Below the pieces are notes generated by a model that was not told the origin of the DNA, ran no database searches, and was given only the letters and a program-made list of their open reading frames with translations. From the IMG/VR virus record IMGVR_UViG_3300000293_000239: a DNA stretch of 9,340 nucleotides; one strand, written 5' to 3'. Every line of letters begins with the position of its first letter. Position 1 is the stretch's first letter. Shown here piece after piece: positions 6,289 to 8,646 of this stretch. The stretch is from a virus (taxonomy: Duplodnaviria > Heunggongvirae > Uroviricota > Caudoviricetes). The translations under genes and the position numbers were made by a program.

Positions 6289-6651
6289 TTAATGACCTGC
6301 TGCGCGGAGTTTTCCGTCAGGTTCACCGGCAAGAGTCAGTAATTGTCCCTGGTCTTCCTGCAGAATAGTCAGGCGACCACCGCGATTGACATACATCGGT
6401 GTTTCGGTGGTGTCTTCTTCGGAAATTTTCCCGCGGTTAGTCGGGCGAACATATGAGAGTTTATGTTTTATTTTCACACGGTTCTCATCAAACGGTTCGA
6501 TTTCCAGGTTGAGCGAGACCTTACCTTTGGTTTTCGTGTTCATCACACCGGAAGCGACTTCACTGAGAACTGCGCCGATTTTGGTTTCAAATACGCCGCC
6601 GTCCAGCTCCCCGATAAATGCCTGCACATCAGTACTGCGTTCGCTAGCCAT
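6289..6651 (-). CDS. Hypothetical prophage protein, 120 aa (YfdP-like by size and synteny)
   Basis: The ORF track extends this frame to 6969, but the only start with a ribosome-binding site is ATG 6649-6651 (GAGGAGCAGCAAA-ATG). The upstream extension runs through a GC-rich, stop-poor structured region and is low-complexity. Confidence 0.7.
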   Translation of the reverse strand: MASERSTDVQAFIGELDGGVFETKIGAVLSEVASGVMNTKTKGKVSLNLEIEPFDENRVKIKHKLSYVRPTNRGKISEEDTTETPMYVNRGGRLTILQEDQGQLLTLAGEPDGKLRAAGH

Positions 6652-6699
6652 TTTGCTGCTCCTCATCATATCGACCCTGCAAGGTCGGTTGGTTTCTCC

Positions 6700-6788
6700 A
6701 CAAAACAGAGAAGAACACCTGCGGTGGCAGCCGCCCGGATGGATTGGGTTATGAGCCCGTCGTCCGGTGATGCTCTTCTCTGTTTTGT
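6700..6788. repeat. Perfect 15-bp inverted repeat (ACAAAACAGAGAAGA / TCTTCTCTGTTTTGT) separated by a 59-nt GC-rich spacer
   Basis: Arms at 6700-6714 and 6774-6788 are exact reverse complements. Lies in the 5' leader of the leftward early genes; the right arm overlaps the U-tract of the adjacent minus-strand terminator. Confidence 0.6.
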
Positions 6789-6834
6789 AAAAAGAGCGGT
6801 ACCAGCCGGAAGCAAGGGTACAAACTGGTACCGC
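6786..6834 (-). terminator. Candidate intrinsic terminator for leftward transcription (10-bp GC-rich stem GCGGTACCAG/CTGGTACCGC, 19-nt loop, then UCUUUUUACA on the minus strand)
   Basis: Stem arms at 6796-6805 and 6825-6834 are perfect complements; on the minus strand the hairpin is followed by TCTTTTTACA (complement of 6786-6795). The loop is larger than in typical terminators. Confidence 0.45.
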
Positions 6835-7088
6835 CAGGACTACACACAGCATAAAGTTGTGGTGCCGGGTGCCTCCCGGTGCCTGGCGAAGGTTGCACAC
6901 CAGACGGGTGGGTATCCACAGAAGGTCGACTGTCAGCCTCAACCTTAACCCGCGTGCGCTGAGCCGCATTCACCACAACGCTAAGGATTCTCTCTGGTTG
7001 AAAATACTTAGCTGTTATGTGCCTGTCTTTTCACCACTTCAGGCTCGGTGGTATCCTTTTAAGCCCGTATACATAAAAGGAAAATCAA

Positions 7089-7334
7089 ATGACTTTTGAT
7101 GAAAAAGAACTTGATAATGCAATTAATAAAATCATCGTAACGTCGCTCTTTTCCTGTCTCAGCGACACTCAGCAGAAACAGTTCTACGAATCGGCTTTCA
7201 ACATGATCGAGCGTTGTTGTTTCTGCGATGCCGACGAGTTACCTGAAAAAATCAGAAAACAGTTGGCTGATGCTCTTCGAGTGCGACTTTCTGACCAATT
7301 TTCTGAAATGTGCTCTCCGAATTTGGACAAATAG
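7089..7334 (+). CDS. Hypothetical small protein (81 aa), rightward-oriented inside the leftward early region
   Basis: ATG 7089 preceded by AAGGA about 8 nt upstream; protein-like composition (charged, helical, CxC pair). Its 3' end overlaps the convergent minus-strand ORF 7252..7527 by 83 bp, so at least one of the two may be mis-called. Confidence 0.45.
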   Translation: MTFDEKELDNAINKIIVTSLFSCLSDTQQKQFYESAFNMIERCCFCDADELPEKIRKQLADALRVRLSDQFSEMCSPNLDK

Positions 7335-7527
7335 AAAAAGGCCATTTCCATTCAGGGTCTGATGGAAATACTTCAGCCTGTTCCAAAGCACGGTGTAAAG
7401 AGAATACAACTCCAGCCATAATCTGATGTTTCCCATTGGTCCAGCTATCGCCGCTCTGATCTACAGGAGCGGCTATGTCGTATGACCAAACGACTTCACC
7501 ACTATTGTTTAAAATCTGGACTTTCAT
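7252..7527 (-). CDS. Hypothetical small protein (91 aa), leftward early operon
   Basis: ATG 7525-7527 preceded by GGAGG at good spacing; the SD is formed by the last codons of the upstream 61-aa ORF (coupled arrangement). The C-terminal third is antisense to the 7089..7334 ORF, and a weak hairpin plus U-run (7344-7369) lies inside it. Confidence 0.45.
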   Translation of the reverse strand: MKVQILNNSGEVVWSYDIAAPVDQSGDSWTNGKHQIMAGVVFSLHRALEQAEVFPSDPEWKWPFSICPNSESTFQKIGQKVALEEHQPTVF

Positions 7528-7535
7528 TTTGTTCT

Positions 7536-7721
7536 TTAACCTCCAGATTTCCGCGCATCTAAAGGCGCATTCTCATTTGGTGTGAACTGAATAGTTGTGC
7601 TGATATTGATTAATGCTCCGACACACAAGACTACGCACTCAGAGCAGATAGCAACTTCATCTTTTCCGCCTTTGGCGATGATTTTTTTGCCTGCAGCTCG
7701 TTTGCGCCACAAAACGAGCAT
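7536..7721 (-). CDS. Questionable small basic ORF (61 aa), first ORF downstream of the putative pL
   Basis: No Shine-Dalgarno sequence; the start codon is embedded at the edge of an 8-bp stem / 8-nt loop hairpin (7696-7719). Position corresponds to where N-like antiterminators sit in lambdoid phages, but I see no arginine-rich motif match I can defend. Confidence 0.25.
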   Translation of the reverse strand: MLVLWRKRAAGKKIIAKGGKDEVAICSECVVLCVGALINISTTIQFTPNENAPLDARKSGG

Positions 7722-7839: not shown

Positions 7840-7910
7840 AAATCTAACTTAACTTAGTTATTATGGCAAGAGAAAACACCAAACTTTTCTTAGTTCGGTG
7901 CCTTAGTTAG
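7840..7910 (-). promoter_or_regulatory. Putative OL/pL region: leftward promoter (-35 TTGCCA, 17-nt spacer, -10 TAGATT on the minus strand) overlapped by operator repeats
   Basis: 11-bp palindrome TAACTTAGTTA (7850-7860) lies in the spacer between the candidate -35 and -10. Further CTTAGTT copies at 7889-7895 and 7902-7908. Located just downstream of the repressor gene, as OL/pL is in lambdoid phages. Promoter hexamers are by-eye matches. Confidence 0.5.
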
Positions 7911-7922
7911 AGAAGAGAGGTC

Positions 7923-8549
7923 TTAGAGTTCGTATTGAACTCCTTTGACTACACCAATGATAAGGCAATTACCATTGATAGGGATGTTGGGATACCGAGG
8001 ATTTAATGGCACTAAAAACTTTTGAGGGCCATCGATGACTAATTTTTTTACTGTAGCTTCGTTTGTTCCATCAAGTCGAGCGATGACTATTTTTCCATGA
8101 CGAGGTTCTGCATCTGGATCTACAATCACTGTTGCGCCTTCTGGTATTGTTGGGAGGCCATTAGGGTTAGTCATGGAGTCACCTTTAACCTCTAATGCAA
8201 ATGAGTTATCACCAATCTTTAATGATGTATCTACCCACTTGTCCACTTCACTAAACACTTCTGCTGCCCTGCACTCAGTAAACTGCCCAGCCTGAACCCA
8301 CGATATTACAGGAACTCTGCGCATGTTTGTGACGAGTTTGCCTTCAAACTCAGCACCATAAAGAATGTAATCTATTGACGTATTGAAGAACTTCGCTAAT
8401 TTCGAAAGTGCCTCCCCACCAGGGGTATTGATGTCTTTCTCCCAGTACCCCACAGCAACGTCGCTTACTCCACAAAATTTACCCAATTCTTTCTGGGACG
8501 TTCTGGTAACTCTTCTCAGAGCTTTTATACGCTGACCAACCGTTTCCAT
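7923..8549 (-). CDS. cI: CI-like prophage repressor (N-terminal HTH_XRE domain + C-terminal LexA/S24 peptidase-like autocleavage domain)
   Basis: 208 aa. N-terminal helix-turn-helix (QKELGKFCGVSDVAVGYWEKD), C-terminal S24-like region with GDSM serine motif and downstream lysine (KKLV). Divergent from a cro-like gene across an operator-bearing intergenic region. No SD upstream of its ATG (possible leaderless transcript). Confidence 0.9.
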   Translation of the reverse strand: METVGQRIKALRRVTRTSQKELGKFCGVSDVAVGYWEKDINTPGGEALSKLAKFFNTSIDYILYGAEFEGKLVTNMRRVPVISWVQAGQFTECRAAEVFSEVDKWVDTSLKIGDNSFALEVKGDSMTNPNGLPTIPEGATVIVDPDAEPRHGKIVIARLDGTNEATVKKLVIDGPQKFLVPLNPRYPNIPINGNCLIIGVVKGVQYEL

Positions 8550-8646
8550 AGGAGCACCATTTCTTGAATTGCTAAGTAATCTTAGTTTTTATTGACCAAA
8601 GATAGATTTGTAATTAGCATCTAATAAAACTTAGTTTGGAGGGCGT
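8550..8646. promoter_or_regulatory. Putative OR region with divergent promoters (pRM leftward, pR rightward) and operator palindromes
   Basis: 14-bp palindrome CTAAGTAATCTTAG (8572-8585); 11-bp palindrome AAACTTAGTTT (8627-8637); candidate pR -35 TTGACC (8592-8597), 17-nt spacer, -10 TAGCAT (8615-8620); SD GGAGGG before the cro-like ATG. Confidence 0.6.

Follow-up and report, generated by a model that had tools for sequence, protein, structure and literature searches.

We analyzed a 9,340-nucleotide (nt) stretch of viral DNA (IMG/VR record IMGVR_UViG_3300000293_000239; hereafter the window, to which all coordinates refer), which belongs to a lambdoid, CPS-53/SfV-like prophage of E. coli and is 100% identical to strain CCUG 73778. 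We found that ~6979-6789 on the minus strand most probably holds a ~190-nt small RNA (sRNA) gene of the phage STnc100/PasD/sRNA-17 family, a reading to which we give a probability of about 75%. On this reading the element is an unannotated sRNA gene of an already described family and a fairly ordinary find; a riboswitch-like or nut/put-like control element is not supported. A preliminary description of the region (6652-7088) had seen a structured, non-coding leader of the yfdP gene and had suggested a terminator/antiterminator switch in it. Its structural observations largely held up, and its regulatory interpretation was not supported.

A scan against Rfam returned a single significant match, RF02076 (STnc100), at 7009-6787 on the minus strand, with 44.6 bits over the full length of the model (positions 1-206/206) and an E value between 1.9e-8 and 3.2e-7, varying with search size. 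The 3' end of this match is the terminator that had been proposed earlier. A third inverted repeat of the region, overlooked before (6856-6864/6971-6979), is the closing helix P1 of a structured RNA body at 6854-6982 on the minus strand. The body is a five-helix junction, in which P1 (6979-6971/6864-6856) is followed by P2, P3 (enclosing the hairpin P3a), P4 and P5 (CCGGGAGGCACCCGG). The GC-rich core of the preliminary description is this body, with a GC fraction of 0.62 over 6854-6982. The topology of the five-arm fold is that of a class II tRNA, with a closing stem, then three arms and finally a hairpin abutting the 3' strand. ARAGORN finds no tRNA in the window, and the likeness is one of topology only, without T-loop or D-loop motifs.

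The junction was drawn by hand by comparing the window with ST64B, phiES15, P1, SJ46 and other copies, and homologs were gathered from annotated phages and from viral contigs (two pattern scans). Five sequences went into a covariance model (R1; 148.6 bits for the window body), which gave 121 copies in the first 100 phage-contig loci (loci carry L numbers below). In the alignment of these 121 homologs, 95.2% of the cells were paired and compensatory changes were present in 29 of the 38 body pairs. When the partners were slid by 1-3 columns, only 39-51% of the cells were paired and the covariation score was 0.02-0.07, compared to 0.349 for the true partners. None of 500 shuffles matched the observed pairing and covariation values. 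Compensation is visible by eye in the closing helix, which reads GUUGUGGUG/CACCACAAC here and GUUGCGGUG/CACCGCAAC in phages P1 and SJ46, and in CCGGG/CCCGG against CCUGG/CCAGG (PPompW). The minimum free energy (MFE) fold of the body alone has nearly identical helices to the drawn structure. Plain MAFFT plus RNAalifold on the diverged bodies recovered P1, P2 and P5 only; P3 and P4 needed the hand-drawn structure and the covariance model. The conservation and the compensatory changes in homologous phages bear out a structured minus-strand RNA, as had first been supposed.

The body is followed by an intrinsic terminator (6787-6836, minus) with a core stem at 6834-6825/6805-6796 and a U-tract at 6795-6789. 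The 10-bp GC stem of the preliminary description grows to 13 bp (free energy -21.2 kcal/mol) and is followed by UCUUUUUAC on the minus strand. A 10-bp inverted repeat alone occurs in ~5% of dinucleotide-preserving shuffles of 6652-7088. In homologous phages the stem sequence changes and its pairing is kept: the stem is replaced by GUCGGCGUC/GACGCCGAC in ST64B and is GCCCGC/GCGGGC in phiES15, several contigs also differ, and a U-run follows in every case. This upholds the leftward terminator (6834-6787) claimed before. It is the first intrinsic terminator of the early-left operon, and it probably also limits the expression of yfdP through int. Its 5' arm resembles DicF (UGGCGGUAYCAGUUU), which accounts for a weak DicF hit in the Rfam scan.

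Between the body and the terminator lies a single-stranded stretch, UGCUGUGUGUAGUC (6838-6851, minus). It is conserved in phages of E. coli, Salmonella (ST64B), Cronobacter (phiES15) and Citrobacter (phiNP) despite their differing terminators, and its position is that of the mapped PasD seed UGUGAG. By analogy with PasD, we propose UGCUGUGUGUAGUC as a candidate seed for target base-pairing.

Downstream of the terminator, the perfect 15-bp inverted repeat reported earlier (6700-6714/6774-6788) was confirmed; it belongs to a longer pair of 25-nt arms (6700-6724/6764-6788) with 84% complementarity. When 6652-7088 was shuffled 300 times with its dinucleotides preserved, the maximum length of a perfect inverted repeat never exceeded 12 bp (2/300) and had a mode of 7, so the 15-bp repeat is far above chance. 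In the minus-strand RNA it forms a long hairpin (I1, 6695-6793) with a 25-bp stem at 6793-6769/6719-6695 and a free energy of -51.2 kcal/mol, enclosing a conserved three-way loop made of GGGCUCAUAACCC and GCGG/CCGC hairpins. The hairpin is paired in 97.5% of the cells across 10 distinct sequences, taken from elements of E. coli, Salmonella and Citrobacter. Five invariant G.U pairs correspond to A.C mismatches on the plus strand, indicating that the hairpin is a structure of the minus-strand RNA rather than a feature of the DNA or of the plus strand. The hairpin adjoins the terminator, and its formation is limited to read-through RNA. It moves together with the sRNA module, and the next gene varies by prophage (yfdP, yfdR, xisE and others). 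Because different genes follow this mobile module in different prophages, it is not a yfdP-specific leader as had been claimed. As a side observation, the 3' arm of the hairpin together with GUGGAGAA (6719-6692) resembles the boxA-like leader and the start of P1 described below, as if it were the remnant of a second tandem copy.

The arrangement of terminator and hairpin bears on the switch of the preliminary description. There, a cis-acting terminator/antiterminator switch or a nut/put-like antitermination RNA was thought to gate yfdP through int by mutually exclusive pairings of the U-tract, which was taken for one arm of the 15-bp repeat. The position fits such a role, since the lambda nut and HK022 put sites are likewise RNA elements of early operons and, like nutL and putL, the element lies upstream of a terminator in the early-left operon. 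Moreover, no N-like protein is evident among the open reading frames (ORFs) between the PL-like promoter and the RNA (a ClpX-zinc-finger-like one of 61 amino acids (aa) and one of 91 aa, neither arginine-rich), so read-through of the terminator wants explaining. However, the string quoted there, UCUUUUUACA, shares no more than its final 3 nt (ACA) with the repeat arm 6774-6788. Five U's of the tract (6793-6789) do pair with GGAGA (6699-6695), but outside the perfect repeat and in the read-through RNA only. This partner lies ~95 nt beyond the termination point and is thus made only once termination has been decided. The pairings are also not exclusive: the adjacent terminator and long hairpin form together in both MFE and centroid folds, whether terminator plus hairpin or the 336-nt read-through RNA is folded. 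For the sRNA alone, the centroid fold contains the terminator, and no alternative partner for its arms was seen in the folds.

The likeness to boxA did not survive comparison either. The string CGCUCUUUUUACAA reads CGACCUUUUUACAC in ST64B, CGCCCUUUUUACAC in phiNP and, for the majority of E. coli variants, CCGUCCUUUUUACAA; it varies even among near-identical E. coli copies. A nut-type boxA (CGCUCUUA / UGCUCUUUAACA) is unconserved at the terminator, where the string varies between CCGUCCUUUUU, CGACCUUUUU and CGCCCUUUUU. No conserved boxB turned up at the region, where no search aimed at boxB was made, and no second copy that could be a nutR-like partner was found in the window. The put RNA has a two-stem structure, which the present fold does not resemble, and the genome of the put phage HK022 is without an R1 match (best 10.4 bits, E 0.6). 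Finally, the RNA body is common to stand-alone, promoter-driven sRNA genes such as PasD1. Taken together, we consider the switch or nut/put-like device very unlikely.

The sRNA reading draws further on described relatives. sRNA-17 of E. coli K1 RS218 is a Northern-detected RNA of 193 nt, as determined by rapid amplification of cDNA ends (RACE), from an mEp460-like prophage (Front Microbiol 2020, PMC7719688). Its locus, like that of the window element, lies between the prophage repressor and yfdP. The closing helix is shared, and the terminator, the U-tract (with the RACE 3' end) and the hairpin downstream are all identical. In its supplementary alignment and primers, PMC7719688 agrees with the window in the terminator GCGGTACCAG...CTGGTACCGC UCUUUU and in the closing helix. 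We placed sRNA-17 on phage mEp460, where counting 193 nt back from the U-tract leads exactly to nucleotide 1 of P1 (the initial G of GUUGUGGUG); no promoter precedes it. By contrast, sRNA-17 has another cassette inside the fold and another sequence ahead of the terminator, where the candidate seed of the window RNA lies. The mEp460 copy gives no STnc100 hit in Rfam even at E up to 1 and scores no more than 26 bits with R1. The original paper reports no homolog in Rfam and proposes that ArcA controls an sRNA-17 promoter of its own (PMC7719688).

STnc100 (RF02076) and PasD1/PasD2 (EcOnc13), which are encoded in lambdoid prophages, share with the window element a multi-helix body closed by UGGUG/CACCA, the P5 hairpin CCGGGAGGCACCCGG, a single-stranded seed before an intrinsic terminator and a length of ~170-210 nt. 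They differ in P2, which is GAAUGCGG in the window and GAAUCCCCC in the canonical copies. PasD1 is 173 nt long, depends on Hfq for its stability and has partners in RIL-seq, a method that ligates and sequences interacting RNAs (PMC8550237). It starts at the first nucleotide of the closing helix, 7 nt past a TTGACT-17-TTAAAA promoter, and carries its seed between body and terminator. By analogy with sRNA-17 and PasD1, the mature 5' end of the window RNA is likely 6979, the first nucleotide of P1. STnc100 has been related to the Hfq-dependent PasD sRNAs of enteropathogenic E. coli prophages (preprint 10.64898/2026.05.13.724894). STnc100 copies are transcribed in enterohemorrhagic E. coli, and one has been confirmed by Northern blot. 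The PasB probe sequence is absent from the window, so we rejected an identity with PasB.

The dicF-dicB operon of the K-12 prophage Qin resembles the window in having an sRNA in a repressor-controlled early-left operon, upstream of a kil/dicB-type gene. The window RNA is nevertheless not DicF, as it has another seed and the DicF model RF00039 (threshold 48 bits) gives only 15.7 bits (E 3.2). In addition, the order in Qin is DicF and then the body, whereas in the window the body comes first and a DicF-like 3' domain follows.

A PL-like early-left promoter, TTGCCA-17-TAGATT (7841-7869, minus; 9/12 matches in a promoter scan), lies just downstream of a cI-like repressor gene. An operator-like repeat, CTAAG-N-CTTAG, occurs at 7842-7859 and 7878-7895, overlapping this promoter, and again in the repressor/cro spacer at 8572-8588 and 8619-8637. 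We read the repeats and the promoter at 7869-7841 as OL/PL. The RNA region lies ~850-1,050 nt into the early-left operon downstream of this promoter, with no further minus-strand terminator predicted in between, and the PL-like promoter is the probable source of the transcripts reaching the sRNA.

The flank immediately upstream of the body (6983-7051, minus) travels with the module: it ends at a mosaic breakpoint (7051) in many E. coli genomes and is identical in the e14 prophage of K-12. It holds a weak sigma-70 candidate, AAGACA (7029-7024)-17-TATTTT (7006-7001), with 8/12 matches by eye, a score under the scan threshold and a predicted start at ~6994; no promoter of this flank is conserved in ST64B. 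In a Reg-Seq study, the K-12 copy with the identical flank showed an active start with gentamicin only, in 1/2 replicates. The transcript of the K-12 copy is part of the e14 'YmfT' iModulon. As the sRNA lies inside the early-left operon and lacks a convincing promoter, its synthesis is most likely tied to a derepressed or leaky prophage.

We therefore propose the following working. Transcription would start mainly at the repressor-controlled PL-like promoter; a cut at the base of P1 would create the 5' end, and termination in the U-tract the 3' end. The released RNA would probably act in trans as an Hfq-dependent base-pairing sRNA through UGCUGUGUGUAGUC. In cis, the terminator would be a polarity barrier ahead of yfdP-yfdQ-yfdR...xis-int. 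Polymerases that read through would make the 25-bp hairpin at 6793-6695, a probable RNase III site, and a cut there would part the sRNA from the downstream mRNA. DicF offers a parallel for such a role: in operon transcripts, RNase III reportedly makes its 3' end (Faubladier et al. 1990).

Several points weigh against the sRNA reading. The RF02076 score of 44.6 bits is below the curated gathering threshold of 47; sister copies gave 40.4-46.5 bits, and this is probably why annotation pipelines miss the sRNA. The body alignment was fitted to the model, and covariation in the long hairpin is weak (2 compensated pairs, a score reached by 30/500 shuffles). The context, embedded in an early-left operon, is unusual for the described STnc100/PasD family, whose canonical copies are found near the Q, stx and lysis genes of the late region (10.64898/2026.05.13.724894). 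Those copies have a TTGAC..-17-TAAAAT-type promoter directly before P1, and no such strong promoter was found in the window copy. A site complementary to UGCUGUGUGUAGUC was sought in the window and none was found. Disruption of sRNA-17 raised yfdP and yfdR (PMC7719688), but this rise in the sRNA-17::Cm mutant could be read-out from the resistance cassette and proves neither a cis nor a trans role. The RNA-seq evidence for sRNA-17 amounts to 4 reads only, in LB medium.

The difference in promoters divides the wider family into two classes. 'C-type' copies are the canonical STnc100/PasD genes with a strong promoter before P1, and 'G-type' copies lack it; the latter comprise the window copy, sRNA-17, ST64B, the P1 ban operon, the K-12 dicF-dicB spacer and PPompW. 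Many G-type copies have a conserved leader, cAGUGCUCUUUCC, which contains the rrn boxA core UGCUCUUU and lies immediately 5' of GUUGUGGUGAAUGCG in many viral-contig loci (e.g., L139, L164, L167, L236). This leader may be a Nus-factor site that shields untranslated RNA from Rho.

We observed family members in several other places. One, unannotated, fills the dicF-dicB spacer of Qin (K-12 NC_000913 1649451-1649583, L237:1952-2084; 63 bits, E 3e-14). In phages P1 (L012:2499-2627) and SJ46 (L011:2499-2627), the C1-controlled ban operon has a copy immediately upstream of tciA; in P1-like phages this operon contains three tRNA genes and a 'dicF-like region' as well. The PPompW copy (L013:2477-2686) likewise lies between dicF and dicB, and its closing helix extends to ~20 bp. 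Tandem arrays of 3-5 copies ~250 nt apart are present at L021:2323-3354, L075:4377-5462, L030 and L038, and copies often stand beside tRNA genes (L160, L169, L134, L135).

These operon-embedded copies suggest a second alternative, a purely cis-acting processing and insulation cassette without a trans role. Here, the fold closed by P1 would direct endonucleolytic cuts, and the terminator and RNase III hairpin would set the stoichiometry and stability of the early-left mRNAs; in relatives that keep the boxA-like leader, Nus loading would protect the untranslated stretch from Rho. The location of G-type copies inside operons (the Qin dicF-dicB spacer, P1 ban and phage early-left operons), the leader with its boxA core, the frequent neighborhood of tRNA genes, the long PPompW closing helix and the sRNA-17 5' end, which lies exactly at the base of P1 without a promoter, are all consistent with this cassette. 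However, Hfq-dependent sRNAs typically have a conserved single-stranded stretch beside the terminator, many partners of the relative PasD are Hfq-dependent, and the leader equivalent of the window itself is degenerate (GAAUCCUUAGC, 6992-6982). We thus regard the purely cis-acting cassette as unlikely for the window copy.

A broader version would make the whole promoter-less G-type subfamily primarily a cis-acting operon module rather than a trans sRNA, and a nut-like device of a new kind. It is suggested by the leader cAGUGCUCUUUCC with the rrn boxA core, the tRNA-like topology and the mapped 5' end at the base of P1, and we hold it to be quite unlikely. If true, such modules could provide Nus loading or Rho resistance and could direct RNase P, E or III cuts in untranslated parts of early operons and in tRNA/sRNA arrays. 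The K-12 dicF-dicB spacer, the P1 ban operon and the e14 'ymfH' would be examples.

The region is non-coding, as had been claimed from the first. Of the several open frames, which lie on both strands, none has the character of a coding sequence. For this check, six ORFs and a 226-aa upstream extension of yfdP were translated. Compared to ST64B, the RNA and hairpin region is 82% identical, with substitutions by codon phase of 20/15/18 and indels of 1, 1, 19 and 1 nt. The adjacent yfdP, 62% identical to ST64B, has substitutions of 25/34/78 and indels measuring 12 and 3 nt. Identity to ST64B is ~55% in every overlapping frame of either strand, and a Pfam search of the ORFs of the region gave no hits. 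Coding was rejected on the frame-independent identity, the even substitution phases, the frame-breaking indels and the loss of the ORFs in relatives.

Existing annotation nonetheless suggests a protein, either a YmfH-like one of 103 aa on the minus strand, 'frameshifted' here, or the product of a 161-aa ORF on the plus strand. PGAP calls a 'frameshifted hypothetical protein' pseudogene at 6666-6976. In K-12, the e14 prophage carries the same module, 91% identical over ~400 nt, which lies between the repressor side and xis-int as in the window, but is annotated there as the 103-aa protein YmfH (ymfH, b1142, 'putative protein'). This annotation explains the PGAP call. PHROG 3651 (function unassigned) matches the plus-strand ORF at 6463-6948 with an E value of 1.5e-107; in antisense orientation, this ORF overlaps yfdP (5' half), the long hairpin, the terminator and one half of the RNA.

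Closer comparison speaks against both proteins. Under ymfH lies a copy of the RNA with 135 bits (K-12 NC_000913 1201069-1201390, L240:2570-2887, homologous to window 6660-7055), and the 103-aa frame owes its existence to a K-12-specific 1-nt deletion in the P5 loop. It is intact in 2/28 distinct sequences, and 22/28 stop at 75 aa. The 161-aa ORF is not open in ST64B, where the homologous stretch overruns the stop of the antisense ORF, and it is absent from phiNP; PHROG 3651 is therefore probably an annotation artefact. We consider it extremely improbable that the region encodes a protein, and, judging from its sequence, ymfH is probably a spurious coding sequence. A ymfH overexpression clone was reported as a trigger of a retron toxin (bioRxiv 10.1101/2020.06.22.160242), which could be an effect of the RNA.

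The main value of the sRNA reading is a correction of annotation, covering ymfH, PHROG 3651 and the PGAP pseudogene calls. The RNA body is present in 1871/5426 complete E. coli genomes, where it is unannotated or called a 'frameshifted hypothetical protein'. The analysis also joins sRNA-17, STnc100/PasD, the dicF-dicB spacer and the P1 ban stretch into one structured-RNA family with two lifestyles, promoter-bearing stand-alone genes and operon-embedded copies. In SfV-, ST64B- and e14-type phages, an intrinsic terminator and a probable RNase III hairpin head the recombination and integration genes, and how these phages, apparently without N, read through the terminator becomes a concrete, testable question.

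In the leftward direction, the repressor gene is followed by two small ORFs, the RNA region, yfdP (6651-6289), yfdQ, yfdR, more genes and the integrase gene. The repressor is a cI-like protein of the LexA family (7923-8549, minus), and a divergent cro-like gene adjoins it. The element stands at the corresponding place, between the cI-like repressor and the first early-left gene, in SfV, SfII, SfIV, ST64B, 118970_sal3, phiES15, phiNP and mEp460. Between the long hairpin and yfdP, the segment 6652-6689 (minus) holds a short hairpin (6689-6670) and the yfdP Shine-Dalgarno sequence GAGGAG (6665-6660) ahead of the start codon (6651-6649). Similarity to K-12 CPS-53 stops at ~6670.

Breakpoints of similarity among E. 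coli prophages lie at ~6670, 6686, 6836 and 7051, positions that coincide with the module edges and with the top of the terminator stem. One recombinant (L195) combines an upstream flank of the window type with an sRNA-17 body. From these sequences, recombination appears to use the conserved helices as joints. The module has at its right edge, on the plus strand, a terminator-like hairpin and T-run (7033-7052) that would halt transcription antisense to the RNA.

The first ORF after the PL-like promoter (7536-7721, minus) encodes the 61-aa protein mentioned above. It has a ClpX-type C4 zinc-finger signature (CSFCG...CSECV), scores 21.7 bits with Pfam PF06689, under the 27-bit cut-off, and matches phrog_5259; its product could be a small ClpX mimic or adaptor. 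Between it and the RNA region, two convergent ORFs, 7089-7334 (plus) and 7252-7527 (minus), share 83 nt and have strong matches to PHROG 3311 and 3195. PGAP calls one or the other, depending on the genome; at least one of them may be spurious, or the overlap may be genuine.

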